DNA of 64,000 bases, taken from the NCBI GenBank assembly GCA_016197005.1, contig JACPWO010000001.1, forward strand, positions 410,544 through 474,543, read 5' to 3'. Positions 3,918 through 61,082 of this stretch are shown here, piece by piece. The translations under genes were made by a program, and so were the position numbers. The stretch is from Candidatus Anderseniibacteriota bacterium. Its GTDB lineage: Bacteria; Patescibacteriota; Andersenbacteria; UBA10190. The first letter of the stretch is position 1. Each line of letters opens with the position of its first letter. Below the pieces are notes generated by a model. The model had not been told where the DNA came from and did not search any database. It was given only the letters and a program-made list of their open reading frames with translations.

Positions 3918-4811
3918 TTACCGCTTGGCTAATGGCAGTTTTATTTCAAATGTCGAACCCGTTGTGTCCTGCCTGTTTTTCCACGTGAGGCTACCTCCGA
4001 ATTCTTCAATAATAAGTCGAGATAGAGTGAGTCCTACTCCAATACCGTCGGGATCAAATTGACTAGCTTTGTCACCTCGAGCAAATGGTTGAAATATCGC
4101 TCCTTCGTCTTTCTCTTTAACACCCACACCACGATCTTGAACAATAATACGTGTCTGCCTCTGTCCTCGTGCTACTGCAATGTTCACTAATCCGGGCTTG
4201 AGACTATACATAATTCCGTTTTCCAGAAGATGCATAAGAGCAATTCGAAAGAGACGTTTATCTACCTTTACCGGCGCATCCTCACAATGAGCACGATAGA
4301 GTAGTTCAGCATTATGAGCAGAAGCGAGCGGTTTTGCTTTCTCAATACTATCCTGAAGGAGCGTACATAAGTCATAGGTCCGTACTTCTTGAGAAATAGC
4401 ACCCTCTTGAGCTCGCAACATTAAAAAGACATCTCGAATGTTTTCGAGCAATATTTTGGATTTCGTCTCCATGTGCTTTATTTTGAGACGCTCTTCAGCT
4501 GGTAGTTTCCGGGCGCGACTGGTGAGATACGCAAAATCTTCCTGAAGAACTTTTAAAGGTGCTTCCAGCTGCCCGGCCACCCGTGATAGACGACGATGCT
4601 CTTTTTTATCTTCTTCTCGTATCTTCTGCTCGGCATACAGAATTAAAATAAGGCCACCGGCGAGAAGACCGCCCGCCAAAAGTGGGAAAAGTGGCAGGAA
4701 ATTCCCCGAAAAAAGAGCGCGAACCAAGAAAAATAAGTCGATCCCAAGTAAGACGGAGGCGCCGCCATATAGGAAGGAATGAAAAATTGATTGCTGCTTT
4801 AATGTAGCCAT
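3918..4811 (-). CDS. Sensor histidine kinase (two N-terminal TM helices, HATPase_c)
   Basis: 297 aa. Hydrophobic N-terminus, coiled-coil/HisKA-like region, and a C-terminal ATPase region DRGVGV...GIGVGLTLSRLIIEEFGGSL. Confidence 0.75.
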   Translation of the reverse strand: MATLKQQSIFHSFLYGGASVLLGIDLFFLVRALFSGNFLPLFPLLAGGLLAGGLILILYAEQKIREEDKKEHRRLSRVAGQLEAPLKVLQEDFAYLTSRARKLPAEERLKIKHMETKSKILLENIRDVFLMLRAQEGAISQEVRTYDLCTLLQDSIEKAKPLASAHNAELLYRAHCEDAPVKVDKRLFRIALMHLLENGIMYSLKPGLVNIAVARGQRQTRIIVQDRGVGVKEKDEGAIFQPFARGDKASQFDPDGIGVGLTLSRLIIEEFGGSLTWKNRQDTTGSTFEIKLPLAKR

Positions 4812-4870: not shown

Positions 4871-5704
4871 TTACCGTATCGGTAGACAAATAGTAAACGT
4901 GCTGCCCTTTCCCTCAGCACTGTCTACTGCAATCGTGCCTCCATGCTTTTCAATAATAGTTCGCGAAATATATAACCCGAGCCCAGAACCGCGCGTATGC
5001 ATTGCAATTGCATTCGATGAGCGAAAAAATTTAGAAAAGGCACGATACTGATCTCCCTGCGGAATGCCAATACCAGTATCTAACACTTTAATGCAGACCA
5101 TTTCATCACTTTGCATCGCGGATACGGTGACCTTCCCACCAGGCGGAGTATATTTGATTGCATTATCTACAAGGTTGCCTAGGGCTATGTTGAGCTTTGT
5201 TTTATCAATAGTAATCTTGGGAAGATTGCTATCTACTGATACGTCCAGAGAAATTTTTCGCCTTTCAGCTGCTTCACTAAACTGATCCACTACTCCACGG
5301 ACTAATTCACCAGTATCTGTGCTTTCTTTAAGCAGGCGATATTTCTGATCTTCAATGCGAGCCACATCCAAAAGTTCTCCCACCAGTCCCATCATTGCTT
5401 GAGTGCGATCCAGGCTCCGTTCCAAAATTCTGCGCTGCTCTTCATTTACCACACCAGCCTGGCCTTCAAGTAATGCGTGATGAGCCCACCGTATTCCTGT
5501 CAGTGGTGTCCGAAGTTGATGCGAAGCAAGGGATATAAACTCACTTTTTACACGATCAATTTCTTTCAAGTGTTGGATAGCTTCTCGTAGTGCGGTCGTA
5601 CGTTCGCGTATCTGGCGTAGCCGTACGTATAACAAGAGAAAAAGAACCGCAGATAATAAAAGGGCCGCTAGCGCTAGCACAATCTGCAGCAAATCGCTTG
5701 CCAT
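4871..5704 (-). CDS. Sensor histidine kinase (HisKA + HATPase_c)
   Basis: 277 aa. TM N-terminus, H-box SLASHQLRTPLTGI, N box LGNLVDNAIKYT, G boxes DTGIGIP and GSGLGL. Confidence 0.85.
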   Translation of the reverse strand: MASDLLQIVLALAALLLSAVLFLLLYVRLRQIRERTTALREAIQHLKEIDRVKSEFISLASHQLRTPLTGIRWAHHALLEGQAGVVNEEQRRILERSLDRTQAMMGLVGELLDVARIEDQKYRLLKESTDTGELVRGVVDQFSEAAERRKISLDVSVDSNLPKITIDKTKLNIALGNLVDNAIKYTPPGGKVTVSAMQSDEMVCIKVLDTGIGIPQGDQYRAFSKFFRSSNAIAMHTRGSGLGLYISRTIIEKHGGTIAVDSAEGKGSTFTICLPIR

Positions 5705-15716: not shown

Positions 15717-16622
15717 ATGTCGCACAATATTAAATCCCTTCACTCTGACTTTATCGAGGAACTAGAGATTGGTTTAGGGCGTAGCCCTAAGACAGTTGAG
15801 AACTATGATAGATACTTACGAGCATTTTTTGAGCACGGGAAAATTGCGGAACTAGCAGATATAACCCAAGAGAGCGTCCGTAGCTTTCGGCGACATATTA
15901 GTCAAAATGGAGCGGCGCTGCCTACTCAGAACTATTACCTTATCGCCATCCGACAATTCTTAAAATATTTAATAAAACGGGATATTGAAGTGTTGTCTCC
16001 AGAAAAGATTCAACTGGCAAAATTACCTGACCGAGATATCGATGTGCTCTACCCTGAAGAAGTCGATATGCTTCTCGGGGCTGTAATCCCTGACATTTCT
16101 CGTCTCCAAGCCCTTCGAGACAAAACTCTATTTAACGTTTTGTTTTCTACCGGTATGCGTATTTCTGAGGCAATACGACTCAATCGCGATGACGTCCGCC
16201 CCCACAGCAATGAAATGACCGTGCGCGGTAAAGGCAACAAAGTACGAGTAGTGTTTTTATCCGAAGAAGCGCTCGGGCAAGTCCATGAGTACCTCGAGCG
16301 ACGCACGGACACGGACCCGGCTTTATTTGTTCGTCACCGCAAAAATGTCGGCAATGAAGATGATTTGCGTATTACTCCCCGCACGGTCCAGCGTCTCATT
16401 AAGCGTTACGCAGCCGCAGCCGGCATCACAAAAGATATTACGCCACATACCCTGAGGCATTCATTTGCCACTGATTTACTTTCTAACGGCGCAGACGTCC
16501 GCCAAGTACAGCAGCTTTTAGGCCACTCTTCTATTACTACCACTCAGGTGTATACCCACTTTACTGATGTTCAACTACGCGGCGTTCACGAACGCTTCCA
16601 CCACAAGAAAAAATCTACGTAA
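15717..16622 (+). CDS. xerC: Tyrosine site-specific recombinase XerC/XerD family
   Basis: 301 aa. It has an N-terminal SAM-like domain, and the catalytic residues R...HTLRHSFATDLL...LLGHSSITTTQVYTH are present. Confidence 0.85.
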   Translation: MSHNIKSLHSDFIEELEIGLGRSPKTVENYDRYLRAFFEHGKIAELADITQESVRSFRRHISQNGAALPTQNYYLIAIRQFLKYLIKRDIEVLSPEKIQLAKLPDRDIDVLYPEEVDMLLGAVIPDISRLQALRDKTLFNVLFSTGMRISEAIRLNRDDVRPHSNEMTVRGKGNKVRVVFLSEEALGQVHEYLERRTDTDPALFVRHRKNVGNEDDLRITPRTVQRLIKRYAAAAGITKDITPHTLRHSFATDLLSNGADVRQVQQLLGHSSITTTQVYTHFTDVQLRGVHERFHHKKKST

Positions 16623-17667
16623 TAAGTTCCATGCCACAAGGAAGATCACCACTGCGCTCGAGGCTTAGTAACGTCTCCCCAATGTTTGTCCAACGCACGA
16701 CACTGGCTGGCCCAGAAAATCCTCCCATGCCGCCTCGTACCAAGGCAGGCAGTCCTTCGGCTGCTTCAATTAAGCCGTAGCGCGCTAAGACGTCACGAAT
16801 AAGGAGCTGCTCCATTACAACGGGCAAGGCAGATTCGTGATAGAGGTCAAGTAGTGTTTGTGGCCCATCTTCTCCCGACAATAATCCTGACTGCTCCCAT
16901 AATCCCTGGTATCCATCGAGCAGCGCAAAACTAATATCCGTTGTTGTTTGTACTTGCCCCGCTCTGGTGCCACGAGCCAGATCCCAAATTAACGGCAGGT
17001 ATTCTTGGACAACATCGAGATACTGAGACCAAGCGGAGGCAAATCCACCCCAGCGAACATGGTAGACATCAGCATGCCACAATACATAAAAACGTTGTGG
17101 GTACGGTAGATCATCAAAGCGTTCGTGACGAGATTTTACGACGGTCAATTTTCCTTGGTATACCCGAGTAAGTTTTAGGGTATTCAAAACGAGTCGCAGC
17201 CGTGATAGACGCGGACAACCCCATTCGTGTTCAGGGGTTTCAATAAAATATCCCCGCAGTGATGGTAGCGCAGCGGTGAGACGTGGCAATTCATGAGCCG
17301 CAAAGATTGTTTCCCCTTCCTGCTTTACTAAATCCGCCGGGTGAGCGGCTAGTTCGTCCAGTAGCCCAAGGGCATCACGTAGAGCTGGAGCATCGAGCAC
17401 TTCTTGACTGGTCAGAGGTATCTCTAGTGGATACGAGGCGTGTTCGTGCTGAGAATGCCATGTCTGTGTTATTACTTTTCGCCACTTTTCCTGCAAAATG
17501 CCAGAAATCTGAAATTCATCAGCAAATACTTGGCAGACCGTCTCTGGATCTGGGGCTTTTGCAATAATTTTCACCATGCGGTCGTAAAATTTCTGGCTTG
17601 GAATGCCAGAAAGCTCGAGAAGAGCTTTGATAGCGTACTGATCAGTAGTGGTCGAAGAAGAACTCAT
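16615..17667 (-). CDS. Hypothetical protein
   Basis: 350 aa, no TM and no recognisable motif; locally higher GC. Confidence 0.5.
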   Translation of the reverse strand: MSSSSTTTDQYAIKALLELSGIPSQKFYDRMVKIIAKAPDPETVCQVFADEFQISGILQEKWRKVITQTWHSQHEHASYPLEIPLTSQEVLDAPALRDALGLLDELAAHPADLVKQEGETIFAAHELPRLTAALPSLRGYFIETPEHEWGCPRLSRLRLVLNTLKLTRVYQGKLTVVKSRHERFDDLPYPQRFYVLWHADVYHVRWGGFASAWSQYLDVVQEYLPLIWDLARGTRAGQVQTTTDISFALLDGYQGLWEQSGLLSGEDGPQTLLDLYHESALPVVMEQLLIRDVLARYGLIEAAEGLPALVRGGMGGFSGPASVVRWTNIGETLLSLERSGDLPCGMELIT

Positions 17668-20387
17668 GCAATAGTTACTTGAGCTTCAGTATGTTCTTTT
17701 CCTAATTTCTTGTCCAAAAGGACAAAAATAATATCTTCCCCTTTTAGCTGCGCTTTAATAGAAGATCCCTTCGGGAATTCACCTGACAATAGGGCTGTTG
17801 CTAAAGGATTTTCGAGGCGACGCTGGATTTCACGTCGCAGCGGACGAGCACCAAATGTAGGGTCAAACCCCTCTTGAGAGAGTCGATTGCGCACTTCCTC
17901 ACTAATTTCTAGCTGCAACCCTTGAGCCGCTACTAGACGGCGAACTTCTTCCAGCATAATATCTGCAATTTTCTGCACATGCTTCTTTTCGAGGGGGTGG
18001 AAAACGATCGTTTCATCGACCCGGTTCAAGAACTCTGGCCGAAATACTTCCTTTAGTTTTTGTCCTAACAGCTCTTTGAGGTCTTCCCAGGCTTTCTTAT
18101 CAGTTTGGGCTCGTCGGGCGGCTGTTTGGATCATATCGCTTCCTACATTGCTCGTCATAACAATGAGGGTGTGCCGGAAGTCTACTGTGCGACCCTTGCC
18201 ATCAGTCAGGCGTCCATCTTCAAATACTTGCAGGAGAATATTTAAGACATCAGGATGCGCTTTTTCAATTTCATCGAGCAAAATGACGGAATATGGTCGA
18301 CGACGAACGGCTTCGGTGAGTTGCCCTCCTTCATCGTGACCGACGTAGCCAGGCGGCGAACCAATCATTCGAGAAACCGCATGTTTTTCCATGTATTCCG
18401 ACATATCAAGGCGAATCATGGCGTCTTCTGAACCAAAGAGAGTGAACGCGAGTGCTCGAGTAAGCTCCGTTTTTCCGACACCGGTTGGTCCTAAGAATAG
18501 GAAGGATCCTTGAGGTCGTTTAGGATCTTTTAATCCCGCACGATTGCGACGAATAGCCTCAGAGACTGCCTTTACCGCTTCGTCTTGAGCGATTACTCGT
18601 CGATGTAGTTCAGTTTCCAGAGTGAGGAGACGTTGTCGCTCTGACTGAGTAAGCTGTTCTACCGGTATACCAGTCCAGGCTGAGACGATTGAGGCAATAT
18701 CCTCTGTAGTAACTTCTGCTTGAGAGGTACCTGTCTTTTTCTTCCACGTTTCTTCCTGTGCTTTACTATCTTTTTCCAGTTCTCTTATTTTTTTAGTAAG
18801 TTTTGCCATTTCCATCTTTTTCTTAGCACGTTTTACAGCCGCGAGTTCGCGTTTAGCTATTTTGATTTTCTCTTGGAGGTTTTGTAACGAAGCGGGAGCC
18901 TGAATAGTACGCAGACGGACTTTCGCTGCCGCCTCATCCATAAGATCAATGGCTTTATCCGGCAGGAAACGAGCCCGAATATATTTATCTGACAACGTTA
19001 CCGAGGCAACAATGGCCGCGTCGGAAATAGATATTTTGTGATGAGCCTCATATTTATCTTTGATACCGCGGAGGATATCGATGGCGTCAGGAATTGTAGG
19101 CTCTTCAATAAGGATGGGTTGGAAACGACGCTCCAGTGCCCCATCTTTTTCAATATGTTTTTTATATTCATTTAAGGTAGTAGCACCAATAACTTGTAGT
19201 TCGCCGCGTCCTAAGGCAGGCTTCAAAATATTCGCGGCATCCATGGTACCGCCTTCTCCGCCGGCCCCGGCACCGACGACAGTGTGTAATTCATCGATGA
19301 ACAATATAACTGTTCTTTTTGCCGTTTCTACTTCCTCGATTACTTTCTTGAGACGGTCTTCAAATTCTCCTCGGTATTTCGTACCAGCGACCATACCAGG
19401 TAAATCAAGAGAAAGCACTCGCTTTCCTTTCAGGGCATCCGGTACTTCGCCGTTTATAATTCTAGCCGCTAAACCTTCTGCGATCGCAGTTTTCCCAATA
19501 CCGGGCTCACCAATAAGCACAGGGTTATTTTTCGTCCGTCGCGAGAGAATTTGAATCACTCGCTGCACTTCTTCGGCGCGACCAATGACCGGATCAAGCT
19601 TTCCTTCTTTCGCTAACACTGTTAGATCACGACTGTATTGATCAAGCGTTGGTGTGTTCGATTTTTCTTTGGCCTGACCAGTTTTCTTCCCCGTCTCGCC
19701 GACCGCCGACAGTACTGCCTGGCGCAGTTTGGTAGGCGTTAGGCCATACTTCTTCAACGTCTGTGACGCCAAGCCATCCCCTTCTTCTAAAAGACCGATT
19801 AAGACATGTTCACTACCAACATAGTCATGCTCTAAGTTTCGAGCAGCGTGCCAGGCAAGCTCAAGAGCTTGTTTGGCGCGAGGCGAAAGGTCAGGAAGAG
19901 CGCCTTCCTCGTACTTCTTTTCTTCTTTTGGCATATTTTCCCGCAGATAACCAACGAGTTCTTCTGAATCAATGTCTAAATTATCAAGTATCTTCTTGCT
20001 AACATCTTTCTCTTGAGCAACACCAATAAGGAGATGTTCAGTGTCTAGGGCAGGGGAACCAGCTTTTTGAGCTTCCTCGGCCGCTGCTTGAATAACTTCC
20101 TTAGCGCGATCGGAGAATGCATCAAGAATATTAACTTGTTGAGTGGTCGGAGCTTGTTCTGACATACCTGCATGCCGGTGTTGCCCTCTTCCAAAAAACG
20201 GATCATCAAAAAAACCACTCCCAAAACCAGGAAAACCGGCAAATGGTGAATCGTACGATGAGGAAGTTGATCGAACTCCCAATTCTTCTGCACACGCATT
20301 ACAGAGGTTTAATTCCGCCGTGTGGCCATTCACAGTACGCTGCACTCGCAAGACTGCGGGGCGGCTTTTACAACGCTGACAGTTCAT
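17664..20387 (-). CDS. clpC: ClpC-type Clp ATPase (double AAA+) with N-terminal ClpX-like C4 zinc ribbon
   Basis: Start at [36 protein letters not shown] (C-x2-C-x22-C-x2-C). A Gly/Phe-rich linker is followed by Clp_N repeats and a D1 Walker A (GEPGIGKT). A UVR-like coiled coil sits between D1 and D2. D2 has a Walker A (GPTGVGKT) and a sensor-2. Confidence 0.85.
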
Positions 20388-20521
20388 AGGCTGTAGTATA
20401 CAAAAACATAGGATATCCGCTCGACTATTCCGTATATTACCTCCACTTTCAAGACTTTGAGTAAAAAAATCCGCGTACATCCAATAATTGGACATACGCG
20501 GGAATGAACAGATGGGACCGA

Positions 20522-28901: not shown

Positions 28902-29576
28902 TTAATTGATTCCAAAAATATTTCCAACCAGACGTATGATAACGTAAGCAGTGCCTATCAAAACTAACCCCAACACGGCATACCACATGATATGCTTTCC
29001 TTTTTCGACTCGGCGTTCATCGCCAAGGGAAACAACTACCATAAATGCACCAATAATAAACACTGTCGCAGCAACAATCGCTGCTATCGAAGTGATGTAA
29101 TCGACAATGTTATACGCGAGTGTGTAGCTATCAAGATTAGGCAACTTAGTTCCTTCTTTAATTGTATCTAGACCTATAATGCTTTGAGCTGCATAAGCAA
29201 TTGGGATAGACAACAAAGGTCCTTGAGAAACACCAAATATTTCTGTCGCAATAATGCTAATAATAGTGTAAGCCAGTATAGAAACGACTAATCCAGCAAT
29301 TGACCATTTCACAATACCTTTTGCGCTAGAAAGGCCGTGTTCATCGCCGACCGCTACAATCATGCGAATACCCCCAAATACAACTCCGAGTAAGGCTAGG
29401 ATAGCCACAAGACCAAGGAGCCAATTAGTAAAATTAATCAAAACACTTGTAAAAGTGACATTATCACCTAATGGGTTTTTAATAGCTGGGCCTAGTGCTA
29501 GTACATCTCCAGCTGCAATGATAAAGACTAAGGAAAGACAAATGGCCCCTATCGCAATACTAGAGTAATACTTCAT
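28902..29576 (-). CDS. Tandem-duplicated (two-module) pilin-like membrane protein, paralog 4
   Basis: 224 aa containing two copies of the module: GGIRMIVAVGDEHGLSSAKGIVKWSIAGLVVSIL and GAFMVVVSLGDERRVEKGKHIMWYAVLGLVLIG. Confidence 0.55.
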   Translation of the reverse strand: MKYYSSIAIGAICLSLVFIIAAGDVLALGPAIKNPLGDNVTFTSVLINFTNWLLGLVAILALLGVVFGGIRMIVAVGDEHGLSSAKGIVKWSIAGLVVSILAYTIISIIATEIFGVSQGPLLSIPIAYAAQSIIGLDTIKEGTKLPNLDSYTLAYNIVDYITSIAAIVAATVFIIGAFMVVVSLGDERRVEKGKHIMWYAVLGLVLIGTAYVIIRLVGNIFGIN

Positions 29577-44056: not shown

Positions 44057-45343
44057 ATGCAAGTAACTGTCCAGAATAAACCCGAGCAATCTCAGGTAGA
44101 GCTCACCATTGCTGTAACACCAGACGAGCTCAAGCCTTTTATTACCAAGGCAGCCGAAAAGATTTCCAAGGATCACCCTATAAAAGGATTTCGTCCAGGC
44201 AAAGTGCCGGTAAAAGTAGTGGCCGAGAAATTTGGGCAGGAGCCACTTCTGCATGAAGCTCTCGACCGCGCCGTACCGCATTTCTTCGTCGAGGCTATCT
44301 TGGAAGAATCTATTGATGCTGTCACGCGTCCTGCTATCGCCATTAAAAAATCTTCCTTTGATGGCCCTCTCGAATTCATTGCCACCGTTGACGTGTTACC
44401 ACAAGTAAAGCTCGGGGACCCGAAAAAAATTAAGGCGGAAAAGAAAGCAATTGAGGTATCTGATGAACATATAGATAAAGAGTTGGAATACTTAGCGAAG
44501 GGGCGCGCTACTGTTTTGGATGTTGCTCGTCCTGCTCAAGTAGGAGACACGGTGACGATAGATTTCAATATTTCTATTGACGGCGAAACAATTGAGGGCG
44601 GTGAAAGTAAGGAGCATCCTGTTCCACTGGGCGAAGGACATTTTTTACCTGATTTTGAAAAAGGGCTTACTGGTATCTCAGCTGGAGATACTCGAGCATT
44701 CGATCTCTCTTTCCCGACTGACTATCCGAAAGAAACTCTTCGCGGCCAGAAGGCACAGGCACGCGTAAAAGCTCACCGCGTCCAACAGCGAGTGCTCCCA
44801 AAGATAGATGATGCTTTTGCCAAAGGACTCGGCAAATTTGATAACCTGCAGCAACTGAAAGATAAACTTAAGGAAAATATGAAGGAGGAAAAACATCATC
44901 GTGAGAAGGAAAGACACTTAAGTGAAATTGCCGAGAAATATTCAGAATTAACGACGATTGGCCTGATTCCCAAAGCTCTCATTGATCGAGATATTGATAG
45001 TCGCCTGCAAGAGTTAGCCCAAATGCTATCTATTCAAGGCAAGACTATCCAAGACTATCTCATCCGCCAGAGGAAGAGCTTAGATCAAGTACGGGAAGAT
45101 ATGCGAGAGACGGCCGAAAAGAATGTTCGAGTTGGACTTACCCTACGTCAATTTGCGAAAGAAAATGCAGTGGAAGTTAGTGACGAAGAGGTAGAGGAGG
45201 AAGTAGTGAAACAAGTGCAACAGTTTGGTTCACCGGAAAAAGCTGAGAAAGAGATAGATATGGAGCACCTAAAAGAACACATCACGGCCACTCTTCGCAA
45301 CCGCAAAGTCCTAGAAAAACTAGCAGAGTTAGCAGCACAGTAG
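44057..45343 (+). CDS. tig: Trigger factor
   Basis: Start at MQVTVQNKPEQSQVELT. Ribosome-binding motif GFRPGKVP, then an FKBP-like domain and a C-terminal domain. Confidence 0.85.
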   Translation: MQVTVQNKPEQSQVELTIAVTPDELKPFITKAAEKISKDHPIKGFRPGKVPVKVVAEKFGQEPLLHEALDRAVPHFFVEAILEESIDAVTRPAIAIKKSSFDGPLEFIATVDVLPQVKLGDPKKIKAEKKAIEVSDEHIDKELEYLAKGRATVLDVARPAQVGDTVTIDFNISIDGETIEGGESKEHPVPLGEGHFLPDFEKGLTGISAGDTRAFDLSFPTDYPKETLRGQKAQARVKAHRVQQRVLPKIDDAFAKGLGKFDNLQQLKDKLKENMKEEKHHREKERHLSEIAEKYSELTTIGLIPKALIDRDIDSRLQELAQMLSIQGKTIQDYLIRQRKSLDQVREDMRETAEKNVRVGLTLRQFAKENAVEVSDEEVEEEVVKQVQQFGSPEKAEKEIDMEHLKEHITATLRNRKVLEKLAELAAQ

Positions 45344-45431
45344 ACAGCTTAAGTTTCCGGCGCTATATTTTCCGTGCGTTGCCACTGTGGCTACGCTTGT
45401 TCTCAACTATTCCCTTCTCATGGAGATCTCC

Positions 45432-46028
45432 ATGGATGCGAACTTGAGCAGAAAAATCGCAGACATACTGCAAAACGATGGCTACGGGCGAATAAAGGTA
45501 CAAGCTCGAGCGGCACGAATAATTCCCGCCTCAAGTGCTACTCACTCGTGGCCGCTTGAAATTCATCTCCCACGTGGACGTACACTGCAAACACGAGAGA
45601 AAGAAGGATTCCCCATTGAGCAATTCCCTGAAGCGAATTGCCCGCTGTTTCAGTCCACACTAAACCCAAGAGACCCCTATGCACTGCCGCACTTTTTTCG
45701 AGCGTGGTTTGACCACCTTGACTCTATCTTGGTCAAAAAGGAATTTTCACTCATCGTTCGCAGTCTGGCGGCAGCGATCGAAATTGACCTGGAGAAAGTA
45801 CAAGAAAATGATGCTGATGGAATAGTTAAGGGAGTGGGGAGTTGCATAGTGAGAACGGAGCTTCACTTACGACACACTCAACAAAAATTTGGCATAGGAA
45901 ACGCTGTTCCATTCGGAGAGCTGTTCTCGACTGACGAGTGGGGGAAAATCAGTAACAAAATTAGAGCAACGGTGCCCCCACCTCCGCCTAGAAACTCCGG
46001 GATATTTGGATCCTCCTATCTTGGATAA
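45432..46028 (+). CDS. Hypothetical protein inserted between tig and clpP
   Basis: About 199 aa from the ATG preceded by GGAGA. No recognisable motif, and the C-terminus is PPPPPR. A terminator lies downstream. Confidence 0.45.
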   Translation: MDANLSRKIADILQNDGYGRIKVQARAARIIPASSATHSWPLEIHLPRGRTLQTREKEGFPIEQFPEANCPLFQSTLNPRDPYALPHFFRAWFDHLDSILVKKEFSLIVRSLAAAIEIDLEKVQENDADGIVKGVGSCIVRTELHLRHTQQKFGIGNAVPFGELFSTDEWGKISNKIRATVPPPPPRNSGIFGSSYLG

Positions 46029-46035
46029 ACAAATA

Positions 46036-46062
46036 AAGCCAGTTGGTTACCTGGCTTTTTTT
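46036..46062 (+). terminator. Rho-independent terminator
   Basis: AAGCCAG-ttggttac-CTGGCTT followed by TTTTTT. Confidence 0.65.
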
Positions 46063-46139: not shown

Positions 46140-46724
46140 ATGTCTTATTTAGTCCCAACTGTTTTAGAAAAATCTCAAGGTGGCGAACGCGCCTATGATT
46201 TATATTCTCGTCTCCTGAAAGAACGTATTATCTTCTTGGGCGGACAGGTGAATGATGACATTGCTAATCTCATCATCGCCCAACTTATTTTCCTCGAGCA
46301 CGAAGACGCCAAGAAAGATATCAAGCTGTATATCAACTCACCGGGGGGCGTCGTAACAGCTGGCATGGCAATTTACGACACCATGCAGTTTATTAAGCCA
46401 GACGTGCAGACTATCTGTATGGGGATGGCAGCGAGCATGGGAGCGGTATTGCTCGCAGGCGGAGCTAAAGGCAAGCGTATGGCCTTAACCCACGCTGATA
46501 TTATGATTCATCAGGTTATGGGAGGCGCCGAGGGACAAGCCACCGATATTGAAATCTCAGCTCGTCACATTTTAAAGATTAAAGACCGTCTTAATGACGT
46601 TTTGGCTCATCACACCGGGCAACCTTTAAAAAAGGTGGCCAAAGACACAGAGAGGGATTACTATATGACCGCAGAGGAAGCTAAAGAATACGGTCTTATC
46701 GACAAAGTCATCGAAAAAGCGTAA
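46140..46724 (+). CDS. clpP: ATP-dependent Clp protease proteolytic subunit
   Basis: 194 aa with the catalytic triad context ([11 protein letters not shown]), 100-residue-class identity. Confidence 0.95.
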
Positions 46725-46878: not shown

Positions 46879-48411
46879 ATGGCAGTAACTACTACCGTTA
46901 TCGCGGCTGCAGCAGCAGCCGTCGCCGGTATTGTTGGCGGATATTTTACCCGCCGCATGCTCGGTGAAAACAAAGACAAACATGCTGAAGAAAAAATTGA
47001 GCAGAAAATTGCCTCCGCTAAGGAAAAATTAGGAAAATTAAAACTCGAAGCAGAGGCAGCAGCCCGCGGCGAGCGAGCAAAGGTAGAAAATGAACTCGAT
47101 GAACGTCGCCATCAAATTATTGAACTTGAAAAGCGAGTCGCTCAACGTGAAGCGAAGCTGGACTCGAAACTAGAAGCAACCGAAGAGAAAGAAGCGGCTC
47201 TTAAACATGACCGCGAAGAACTCAAGACTCAGAAAGAAGAGCTGATAAAGCTTCAAGACGAGGAACAAAAGCGTCTGGAAGAGACGGCTGGTCTCACCGG
47301 TGAGCAGGCCGCTGAACGAATCATGCAATTAACCGAGGAACGCACTAAAGAGGATATTGTTCGTCGAGTTCGTCGTCTGCAAAAAGAAGGGGAGCGAGAA
47401 CTGGAAGAAAAAGCTCGAGATATTCTCTCAACTGTTATTCAACGATACGCCTCTTCGCACGTAGCTGAGCACTCCACTTCCTACGTAGATGTGCCCGATG
47501 AAGGCATGATTGGACGCATTATTGGTCGTGAAGGCCGTAACATTCAACATATTGAGCGCGTTACTGGCTGCGAAGTAGTCATTGATAGCGAAAATTCTGG
47601 CTCGATCATGATTTCTGGGTTTTCTCCTGTCCGTCGTCAGGTAGCTAAGCGTGCTTTAGAACAGCTATTAAAAGACGGTCGTATTCATCCCGGTCGAATT
47701 GAAGAAGTCGTAGAAGAAGCCAAGAAAAAGATAAACGACGATATTCGAGAAGCCGGTGAAGCAGTGGTATATGACTTGGGTATTGTTGATTTCCCACCTA
47801 AACTCGTTCACCTCGTTGGTCGCATGAAGTACCGCACTAGTTACGGCCAAAATATTCTCCGTCATAGCTGGGAAGCAGCTCGCATCGCCATGATGCTCGC
47901 GGAAGAACTAGGAGCCGACGTAACGATTGCCAAGAAAGCCACCCTACTCCATGACATCGGTAAAGCAATTGATCATGAAGTTGAAGGAAATCATGTCGAA
48001 ATTGGTGAAAAGATTATGCGAAAATTCGGCATTAGTGAAGAAATTGTTAAAGCCGCTGCTGCTCATCACGAAGACTATCCTTTTGATACTCGCGAAGCGA
48101 TCATTGTTCAGGTATCCGACGCCATTTCCGCTGCTCGCCCTGGTGCTCGTCGGGAAGGCACTGATCAATATATCAAACGCATGGAAGACTTAGAGCAAAT
48201 TGCCGCCAGCTACGAAGGCGTGCAGAAAGCCTACGCCATTTATGCAGGACGTGAGATTCGAGTCTTCGTAGAACCAAAGAAAATTGATGATTTGCAGGCA
48301 ATTAAATTAGCACAAGATATTGCCAAACAAATTGAGCAAGAACTCACCTATCCTGGTGACGTTAAAATAAACGTTATTCGCGAAACTCGCAGTGACGCCT
48401 TAGCACGCTAA
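46879..48411 (+). CDS. rny: Ribonuclease Y
   Basis: N-terminal TM helix, a long coiled-coil, KH (IGRIIGREGRNIQHIE), and an HD domain (LLHDIGKAIDHE). Confidence 0.9.
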   Translation: MAVTTTVIAAAAAAVAGIVGGYFTRRMLGENKDKHAEEKIEQKIASAKEKLGKLKLEAEAAARGERAKVENELDERRHQIIELEKRVAQREAKLDSKLEATEEKEAALKHDREELKTQKEELIKLQDEEQKRLEETAGLTGEQAAERIMQLTEERTKEDIVRRVRRLQKEGERELEEKARDILSTVIQRYASSHVAEHSTSYVDVPDEGMIGRIIGREGRNIQHIERVTGCEVVIDSENSGSIMISGFSPVRRQVAKRALEQLLKDGRIHPGRIEEVVEEAKKKINDDIREAGEAVVYDLGIVDFPPKLVHLVGRMKYRTSYGQNILRHSWEAARIAMMLAEELGADVTIAKKATLLHDIGKAIDHEVEGNHVEIGEKIMRKFGISEEIVKAAAAHHEDYPFDTREAIIVQVSDAISAARPGARREGTDQYIKRMEDLEQIAASYEGVQKAYAIYAGREIRVFVEPKKIDDLQAIKLAQDIAKQIEQELTYPGDVKINVIRETRSDALAR

Positions 48412-60227: not shown

Positions 60228-60252
60228 AACCGCTCGACCCGCGGTTTTTTGT
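60228..60252 (+). terminator. Rho-independent terminator after rplS
   Basis: AACCGC-tcgaccc-GCGGTT followed by TTTTTTG. Confidence 0.65.
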
Positions 60253-60287
60253 TTGCTAATATTGCAGTATATATCCTATCCACTTGC

Positions 60288-61013
60288 ATGGGAGTTAAAT
60301 ACAGCATCAACGAAAAATTCTTTAGTAAATGGAGCTCTGATATGGCGTATATTCTTGGTTTTTTATACGCTGATGGGAGTCTAGAAAACGCTCCTTTAAT
60401 GCGAGGGAAATATGTTCGTGTCTCTAGTACAGATAAATACATCCTTGATGCTATAAAAGAGCATTTAGATTCTGACCATACTATCGCTCTTACTACCTAT
60501 ACCAAAAAACCCAGATATTTATTGCGGATCGGAAGTCATATACTTTATGACTCTCTGGTTTCTTTAGGCTTAAAGCCTCAGAAGTCTTTAACAATGACTT
60601 TTCCTACTATTCCTACGCGTTACCTCGGCGACTTTTTAAGGGGGTATTTAGACGGTGATGGGTGTGTTCAATGCGAACAAAGTCTTAATGAACATGGAGA
60701 AAAAATATTAAAAAGGCTATCTATTTACTTTACAAGTGGGAGTGAAGAATTTTTGCGTGAAATGACTAGGCTCCTGGCAAAAACGTATGGGTTGTCCCCT
60801 CAGAAAACTCATCCTAGTAAAAGAGCATTTCAAGTACGCTACTCAACTGGCGATAGTATAACTTTATTCAAGCATCTATACGGAAAACGAATGAATAACC
60901 TGTATTTTCCAAGAAAATTTGCACGCTTTCAGAAATACTTTAACCTTAGACCGCAGCGCATTGATAAAGAAGTTGCTAAGATCTTAGATATGGCCACGTG
61001 GCGAAGTAGTTAA
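60288..61013 (+). CDS. Free-standing double-motif LAGLIDADG homing endonuclease
   Basis: Two LAGLIDADG motifs about 100 aa apart (ILGFLYADGSL and LRGYLDGDGCV). The gene is AT-rich relative to the window. Its 3' end and stop codon lie inside the tRNA-Cys gene. Confidence 0.7.
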   Translation: MGVKYSINEKFFSKWSSDMAYILGFLYADGSLENAPLMRGKYVRVSSTDKYILDAIKEHLDSDHTIALTTYTKKPRYLLRIGSHILYDSLVSLGLKPQKSLTMTFPTIPTRYLGDFLRGYLDGDGCVQCEQSLNEHGEKILKRLSIYFTSGSEEFLREMTRLLAKTYGLSPQKTHPSKRAFQVRYSTGDSITLFKHLYGKRMNNLYFPRKFARFQKYFNLRPQRIDKEVAKILDMATWRSS

Positions 61014-61064
61014 CGCGGCGGTCTGCAAAACCGCTATTCGCCGGTGCGATTCCGGCCGTGGCCT
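60992..61064 (+). tRNA. tRNA-Cys (anticodon GCA)
   Basis: GGCCACG...GCGGT-CTGCAAA-ACCGC...GCCGG-TGCGATT-CCGGC-CGTGGCC-T. Confidence 0.85.
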
Positions 61065-61082
61065 CAAAGTTCTTTTAAATGA

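Follow-up and report, generated by a model that had tools for sequence, protein, structure and literature searches.

A ClpC-like Hsp100 protein with an N-terminal ribbon and without the canonical ClpP-docking loop in the candidate phyla radiation

The stretch of DNA analysed here, in the following called the window, comprises 64,000 nucleotides of contig JACPWO010000001.1 (assembly GCA_016197005.1, positions 410,544 to 474,543 of the forward strand) from Candidatus Anderseniibacteriota bacterium. On its minus strand it encodes a Clp ATPase, a ribbon-bearing and loop-less Hsp100 protein resembling ClpC (17664..20387; start codon ATG at 20387, stop codon at 17664-17666, 907 codons plus stop). 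The most probable explanation, in which we have reasonable but not strong confidence, is that the protein is an unfoldase or disaggregase that is independent of ClpP, recognises misfolded or aggregated proteins with a ribbon of the N1 type and works in the manner of ClpG, as a variant specific to the candidate phyla radiation (CPR). The sequence of 907 amino acids is 100% identical to MBI1833235.1 and MBI3250659.1 at NCBI, both from Candidatus Andersenbacteria and labelled "AAA family ATPase", and is part of a large CPR-specific (Patescibacteria) protein family, in which there are forms with and without the loop that docks on ClpP. The original prediction, made from the sequence of the window, regarded it as a chimera of ClpX and ClpC, which is a tempting reading but a wrong one, and it is corrected here.

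The N-terminus does carry the ribbon with the cysteine pattern C-x2-C-x22-C-x2-C that had been predicted (residues 1-36; 20280..20387, minus strand), and it is followed, likewise as predicted, by a Gly/Phe-rich linker (residues 37-88; 20124..20279, minus strand). The presumed zinc ligands C3, C6, C29 and C32 are invariant in the CPR homologs (60 of 60 aligned sequences). A motif in the linker is conserved across the CPR family, and a segment of it resembles the stretch that follows the ribbon in ClpK (SPLEALFGSRSGLFEDFLGSDFF) and in ClpE. The start M-x-C-x-x-C and the complete cysteine pattern are found in 100 of the 120 best-listed homologs, which are 53-77% identical, and the remaining 20 are gene calls truncated at the N-terminus.

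The spacing and the flanking residues had been taken for those of the zinc-binding domain of ClpX, and this does not hold. All 37 distinct ClpX ribbons that we collected from clpP loci read CSFCGK-(x18-20)-YICDEC, whereas the ribbon of the ATPase has the x22 spacing and none of the ClpX signature residues (CSFCGK...LIAGP...YICDEC). In a Pfam scan at E<=10 neither the first 42 nor the first 100 residues matched the family zf-C4_ClpX; the scan returned only a weak match to DUF7685 (E 0.0012) and matches to DnaJ_CXXCXGXG and zf_Tbcl_Rhp7. When the profile of the CPR ribbons was compared by hhalign with 27 zinc-binding domains of ClpX the probability was 3.4% and two gaps were needed, but with McsA, ClpE, ClpK and a ClpG-like protein of Shinella it was 98.6% (E 6.7e-16) over 40 gapless columns. 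The NCBIfam model of McsA, NF053706, matches residues 1-41 (E 8.6e-8), and the closest sequences in the PDB are McsA (8wtb, E 2e-4) and ClpE (29hb, E 6e-4), the alignment with ClpE continuing through the linker; both McsA and ClpE have the same x22 spacing.

The predicted structure points in the same direction. In the AlphaFold2 model of the ribbon (predicted local distance difference test, pLDDT, 84) two strands, residues 13-19 and 22-28, form a beta-hairpin that is followed by a helix, residues 30-36. Its top Foldseek match in the PDB is 8p66, the nuclear magnetic resonance structure of the N1 domain of ClpG, with a template modelling score of 0.63 and a root mean square deviation of 1.8 Å over 37 columns; the E-value of 0.028 is modest, as the domain is small. 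No zinc-binding domain of ClpX was among the top 50 PDB matches of the model. By its sequence and its modelled fold, the ribbon is thus of the type found in McsA, ClpE and ClpG N1 and not of the ClpX type, and the protein is for this reason not a chimera of ClpX and ClpC. The N1 domain of ClpG has C6, C9, C31 and H34 as zinc ligands, and V17 and L21 are the residues with which it targets aggregates (Katikaridis et al., PMC10641755). The same study showed it to be homologous to the N-terminal domains of ClpE and McsA, so that ribbons of the N1 type are already known from the Hsp100 proteins ClpE and ClpG/ClpK (PMC10641755). The alignment places V15 and V19 of our ATPase, which are hydrophobic and lie in the first strand, at the positions of V17 and L21 in ClpG. 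A search with the ribbon profile among 1.84 billion cluster representatives gave 4,777 proteins at E<=1e-3, with McsA-like proteins of about 180 amino acids, small proteins with several ribbons and fragments of CPR Clp ATPases as the best matches. Three of the proteins from this search (P0311, P0313 and P0323; 110-272 amino acids) consist only of two to four N1-type ribbons in tandem.

Behind the linker the Pfam matches come in the order of two Clp_N stretches, AAA, AAA_lid_9, AAA_2 and ClpB_D2-small. The N2 domain with its two Clp_N repeats (residues ~89-235; 19683..20123, this and the following domains on the minus strand) is 43% identical to the N-domain of ClpC and 18% to that of ClpB. It is followed by the D1 AAA+ module (residues ~245-500; 18888..19655) with Walker A GEPGIGKT, Walker B ILFIDELH and the pore loop KYRGEFE, by a short coiled-coil M-domain (residues ~501-565; 18693..18887), by the D2 AAA+ module (residues ~566-800; 17988..18692) with Walker A GPTGVGKT and the pore loop GYVGH, and by a D2-small domain (residues ~801-885; 17733..17987) with the sensor-2 motif GARPLRR, after which there is only a short, basic and unconserved tail. 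Both rings have intact Walker A and B motifs and pore loops and an intact sensor-2. The top full-length match in the PDB is ClpC of Bacillus subtilis (923 bits), and over residues 89-885 the identity is 57% to ClpC, 52-54% to ClpK and the ClpG-like protein, 49% to ClpB and 41% to ClpA. The M-domain is collinear with that of ClpC, the distance from FLPDKAID to WTGIP being 96 residues in both, compared to 157 in ClpB. A UVR motif (PF02151) could not be found in it at E<=10, although the B. subtilis ClpC control gave 33.4 bits (E 3e-8). Of the ClpC body that had been described from the sequence, the Clp_N repeats, D1, D2 and an M-domain of ClpC length are present, but the UVR coiled coil is not confirmed. 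The whole protein also fits the ClpG model of NCBIfam in one collinear match (955 bits, residues 3-878 onto model positions 6-873) and the ClpK model with 948 bits, and the best matches among annotated plasmid proteins are ClpK proteins, which align in one piece over residues 2-888 with 48.6% identity.

The other distinguishing feature is the surface loop of D2 (residues 748-770; 18078..18146, minus strand), the site where ClpC, ClpA and ClpX carry the docking tripeptide (I/L/V)G(F/L), which is missing in the ATPase. Where ClpC has NKYVGF between MTSN and FRPEF, our protein aligns with a gap of three residues and AAR, and in the multiple alignment its loop lines up with those of the loop-less ClpK, ClpG-like and ClpB proteins. 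The same alignment shows the tripeptide as VGF or LGF in ClpC of Firmicutes, IGL in ClpA and IGF or LGF in some CPR relatives. All 27 Firmicutes ClpC sequences that we retrieved have VGF or LGF, and [ILVMF]G[FLIM] was not seen in the D2 loop of any of the 87 closest listed homologs (>=60% identity), several of which have the loop almost fully deleted, with 21-30 residues between MTSN and FRPEF. More distant ribbon-bearing proteins from the CPR, about 55% identical, do have IGF, LGF, FGF or VGF within a longer loop. The C-terminal tails were inspected for another docking motif and have none; in the loop-less as well as the IGF-type forms they are basic and show no conservation. By the standard sequence criterion the ATPase cannot dock on ClpP, and with neither a ClpX-type ribbon nor a docking loop the proposal of a single chimeric unfoldase serving ClpP is unsupported for this protein. 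For ribbon-bearing ClpC proteins with IGF, LGF or FGF in other CPR lineages it is plausible that they serve ClpP in place of ClpX.

We hypothesize that the ATPase assembles to a hexameric double-ring unfoldase of the ClpC/ClpG branch of the Hsp100 proteins, in which the order of domains would be that of ClpG and ClpK, with the N1 ribbon, a hydrophobic Gly/Phe linker, a ClpC-type N-domain, D1, a short M-domain and D2. Through V15 and V19, the zinc-stabilised beta-hairpin of the ribbon would bind to hydrophobic segments or beta-strands that misfolded and aggregated proteins expose, and the six ribbons of a ring would provide avidity. Bound polypeptides could then be threaded through the pores of D1 and D2 by hydrolysis of ATP and be released to refold. 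Because the docking tripeptide of D2 is missing, the enzyme would not feed ClpP, and because the M-domain is half as long as that of ClpB, a dependence on DnaK of the ClpB kind is unlikely. It is from the sequence that we infer binding of zinc and of aggregates, autonomy from both ClpP and DnaK, and activity as a disaggregase.

Phylogenetic trees were made by neighbour-joining with Kimura distances from about 790 columns and 100-200 bootstraps. The CPR ribbon proteins form one clade (88% bootstrap) next to ClpC of Firmicutes, with ClpK and ClpG outside of this pair and ClpB further out; ClpB falls outside the group of ClpC, ClpG and CPR proteins in both trees, with 97-98% bootstrap. ClpK and the homolog from Shinella make up a clade of their own, apart from the group of ClpC and the CPR proteins. 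Within the family, the loop-less clade of our ATPase has 100% support, and a clade of IGF-type proteins (82%), which includes members without the tripeptide, is nested among the loop-less CPR clades. Two of these members, P0131 and P0134, have a D2 loop of full length without the tripeptide (...GGKKGAW... and ...GGGKDMAW...), and their position inside the IGF-type clade suggests that docking on ClpP has been lost repeatedly and independently in the CPR.

The IGF-type proteins (e.g. P0089 from GCA_965230955.1 and P0149 from GCA_046350855.1) agree with our ATPase in ribbon, linker, N-domain and body, with 55-59% identity, and belong to the same 88% clade, but unlike it they have a longer D2 loop with IGF, LGF, FGF or VGF. 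Their genes stand behind genes for PrsW and HSP20, whereas the loop-less form is found near rpsO-pnp. HSP20 is encoded 5' of the IGF-type ribbon ClpC at L092:7963-8415 and L094:9190-9654, and this order of PrsW, HSP20 and ClpC echoes that of hsp20 and clpK on Klebsiella plasmids (hsp20 at L085:2305-2871). The IGF-type ribbon ClpCs are plausible partners of ClpP in the CPR, and since ClpX is reported to be lost there, the loop-bearing form is a natural candidate for the sole partner of ClpP in some lineages.

Several observations speak against a ClpG-like, autonomous disaggregase. Although the architecture is ClpG-like, the protein is by its sequence not an ortholog of ClpG: its scores with the ClpG and ClpK models (NF033607 and NF033606) are far below the cutoff of 1900 bits, the C-terminal extension of ClpG is absent, as the match ends at position 873 of the 932 in the model and only about 20 unconserved residues follow D2-small, its position in the tree is another, and its AAA body is nearer to ClpC (57%) than to ClpK (52%). 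The trees themselves are by neighbour-joining only. No gene for a small heat-shock protein adjoins the ATPase gene, whereas hsp20 adjoins clpK and the IGF-type relatives in the CPR, and neither of the heat-shock operators CIRCE and CtsR box was found in the window. The step from the absence of the loop to independence of ClpP is an argument from sequence. On at least six contigs the loop-less ATPase is accompanied by a ClpP that is highly conserved and has its docking pocket intact, and ClpX is reported lost, which leaves a link to ClpP formally open. ClpC is a tightly repressed enzyme that depends on adaptors, and autonomy can therefore not simply be assumed for an ATPase that resembles it.

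This last point leads to what we consider the least improbable of the alternatives, although still an unlikely one, namely that the ATPase is ClpC-like and independent of ClpP but not autonomous, and that it is repressed at rest and needs an adaptor or activator. Such a factor could be the product of the neighbouring gene, or phospho-arginine-type tagging read by the N-domain. The AAA body and the N2 domain are indeed nearest to ClpC, the M-domain has the length of that in ClpC, and by inspection both Clp_N repeats have the TEH/SEH motifs (DTEH and GSEH), which we take to be the phospho-arginine pockets of ClpC. The neighbour is a conserved hypothetical gene of 350 amino acids (16615..17667, minus strand) that overlaps the stop codon of the ATPase gene by 4 bp, an overlap also present in L096. 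Its homologs have 331-359 amino acids, are 30-40% identical between genomes and share the motifs APDPET, WHxDxYH and LPC (L093:12731-13789, L095:8752-9831, L096:8547-9542 and L097-L106), and it stands directly 3' of the loop-less ATPase in nine of the 12 informative loci. It is always located 5' of xerC-rpsO-NYN-pnp. On the other hand, three metagenome loci have this gene beside its neighbours xerC-NYN-pnp but lack the ATPase, and in the P0078 subclade the ATPase is found without it, so the pairing may be plain synteny. The 350-residue protein has no Pfam or NCBIfam match, and the single-sequence AlphaFold model, with a pLDDT of 39, is unusable; the protein may act as an adaptor, unless its gene is just syntenic. 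Nor did we see any McsB- or MecA-like gene in the window. The 314-residue open reading frame (ORF) upstream of the ATPase gene was considered as another conserved partner and rejected, as it has no BLAST similarity between genomes.

The remaining question concerns ClpP. The tig and clpP genes have the order and coordinates of the original prediction, which was also right about what surrounds them: the trigger factor gene tig (44057..45343, plus strand, as the other genes of this locus) is followed by a hypothetical ORF (45387..46028) without a Pfam or NCBIfam match but with a terminator-like hairpin (46035-46058), then by clpP (46140..46724), and rny for RNase Y (46879..48411) occupies the position where bacteria usually have clpX. 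The gene clpX is missing from this locus as had been noted, and a tblastn search with eight ClpX proteins found none in the window as a whole. The hypothetical ORF has been seen only in the same species (L002 and L003), and it does not stand beside clpP in 11 other CPR loci. The window's ClpP is also present in assembly GCA_016178385.1 with the same gene order. Among 80 loci retrieved with ClpP, clpX lies directly 3' of clpP in about 45 loci from outside the CPR, but there was no clpX within 10 kb of clpP in any of the 11 loci from the CPR, where the conserved neighbours are nusA, tig, rny and tyrS. In four of the CPR loci clpP is directly followed by a gene of about 400 codons, which was considered as a substitute for clpX and turned out to encode tyrosyl-tRNA synthetase (HLGH and KMSKS). 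ClpP itself is a bona fide member of its family, as it passes the equivalog cutoff of TIGR00493. Its catalytic Ser, His and Asp, together with most residues of the hydrophobic docking pocket, which we take to be those of the E. coli literature, are kept both in the window and in 119 listed relatives, and within the clade of the window it is 77-88% identical. In at least five further genomes one contig carries the genes for both ClpP and the loop-less ATPase.

The absence of clpX is probably genome-wide, since a loss of ClpX on the stem of the CPR has been reported by Coleman et al., and it would then be something already known. In the literature on ClpX and Clp proteins in Patescibacteria, CPR and Saccharibacteria we found this statement only in Coleman et al., and transcriptome papers on TM7x name only clpB and clpP for that organism. 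Given the loss of ClpX at the stem of the CPR and that of the loop from the only Clp ATPase that we found, it is possible, but we think rather doubtful, that the ClpP of this clade survives without a canonical partner of the IGF type. It might be driven by the loop-less ATPase through a new mode of docking or by a partner that has escaped recognition, with the 350-residue neighbour perhaps as a bridge, or it might act alone as an ATP-independent peptidase.

Somewhat less probable still is the more specific idea that the window's ATPase continues to serve ClpP by means of a non-canonical contact instead of the IGF-type loop. It would be in line with the reported loss of ClpX, with the absence of clpX from the window and from the vicinity of clpP in the 11 other CPR genomes, with the preserved triad and docking pocket of ClpP, and with the shared contigs, and also with the fact that IGF-type and loop-less forms were not found together in any one of the near-complete genomes listed. 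However, the loop is variable and in some close homologs nearly deleted, and is thus not under selection for docking, and the C-terminal tails are not conserved. We know of no characterised Hsp100 protein without the loop, i.e. ClpB, ClpG and ClpL, that binds ClpP, and another partner of ClpP may be encoded beyond the window. A DnaK-dependent disaggregase of the ClpB type with an added N-terminal ribbon is very improbable, because even though ClpB gives the highest summed NCBIfam score (TIGR03346, 1044 bits) and aligns best in the region of the D2 loop, the match is split in two and below the cutoff of 1232 bits, the M-domain lacks 61 residues compared to that of ClpB and hence has no second wing, the N-domain has only 18% identity, and ClpB falls outside the group of ClpC, ClpG and CPR proteins in both trees. 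The gene annotated as clpB in Saccharibacteria TM7x may be the relative of our ATPase gene there.

The start of the ATPase at ATG 20387, and with it the presence of the ribbon, is confirmed by the starts of the homologs, by the identical call at NCBI and by the signals found upstream. A hairpin of 14 pairs with a T-run, resembling a terminator of the preceding gene, is located at 20471..20501 (minus strand), and a promoter-like site, TTGAAA-17-AATAGT (20424..20452, minus strand), lies 36 nt 5' of the ATG, the latter being a consensus match only. The position of the hairpin indicates that the ATPase gene has a transcription unit of its own and excludes longer starts; those at TTG 20588 and ATG 20480 were rejected as they overlap the upstream gene and the terminator and are not common to the homologs. 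The 5' ends of genes in this family are often miscalled, with about one sixth of the database entries beginning inside or after the ribbon (P0004, P0013, P0031, P0044, P0055-57, P0072 and others). For P0149 the ribbon is absent from the NCBI call and could be recovered in frame just upstream (L094:9787-10000). The Logan call of the ATPase gene is instead too long by 31 codons (938 amino acids; 20388-20480) and begins within the upstream terminator hairpin.

A few other genes of the window deserve mention. A pilin-like gene of the type IV secretion system kind (28902-29576, minus strand) is found a few kb from the ATPase, and there are relatives with arrays of up to seven such copies (L091:1-3153 and L093:1088-3095); such genes close to the ATPase seem to recur among these CPR genomes. 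Just after rplS there is an ORF for a LAGLIDADG-type homing endonuclease (60249-61013, plus strand), the 3' end of which overlaps the start of tRNA-Cys (60992-61065). Two adjacent genes resemble those for histidine kinases (3918-4811 and 4871-5704, both on the minus strand), with a HisKA domain in the second only, and no response regulator was found among the ORFs of the window that were scanned.

Compared to known systems, the ATPase comes closest in design to ClpG and ClpK, the stand-alone disaggregases that give heat resistance to Pseudomonas and Klebsiella and are carried on TLPQC/LHR islands. The order of domains is the same, D2 likewise has no ClpP loop, the predicted fold of the ribbon matches that of 8p66, and the positions that bind aggregates are hydrophobic here as well. 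The differences are that the fourth zinc ligand is a Cys, as in McsA and ClpE, and not a His, that the C-terminal extension is lacking and the score is half of the NCBIfam cutoff, that the protein groups with ClpC and other CPR proteins rather than with ClpK, that no hsp20 is adjacent, and that the host belongs to the CPR and is not a proteobacterium. ClpE of Firmicutes shares the spacing of the ribbon, and its alignment (29hb) runs into the Gly/Phe linker. It has, however, no Clp_N N-domain, its ribbon stands directly before D1, and the ClpP-docking loop is present, whereas our ATPase has two Clp_N repeats and no such loop. ClpC, as in B. subtilis and S. aureus, or ClpC1 of M. tuberculosis, has the same type of N-domain and the same length of the M-domain, but it is without a ribbon, its docking loop has V/LGF and its M-domain is UVR-positive, and in all three respects the ATPase is the opposite. 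The first zinc ribbon of McsA, the activator of the protein-arginine kinase McsB, is by sequence the nearest relative of the N-terminus, but McsA is a small adaptor that stands alone and has a second zinc finger as well as a UVR-like tail, while the ribbon of the ATPase is fused to an unfoldase. The zinc-binding domain of ClpX is also an N-terminal C4 ribbon on a Clp ATPase, and differs in spacing, signature, profile and fold.

A CPR family with such generic annotations as "AAA family ATPase" and "ClpC" can thus be placed beside ClpG, ClpK and ClpE among the Hsp100 proteins that bear a ribbon. With the loop-less form, no motor is known for a ClpP that is nevertheless conserved, and this raises the question of how ultra-small bacteria manage with minimal proteostasis. 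If the loop-less form truly is an autonomous disaggregase, stand-alone disaggregation of the ClpG type would extend well beyond the heat-resistance islands of proteobacteria.

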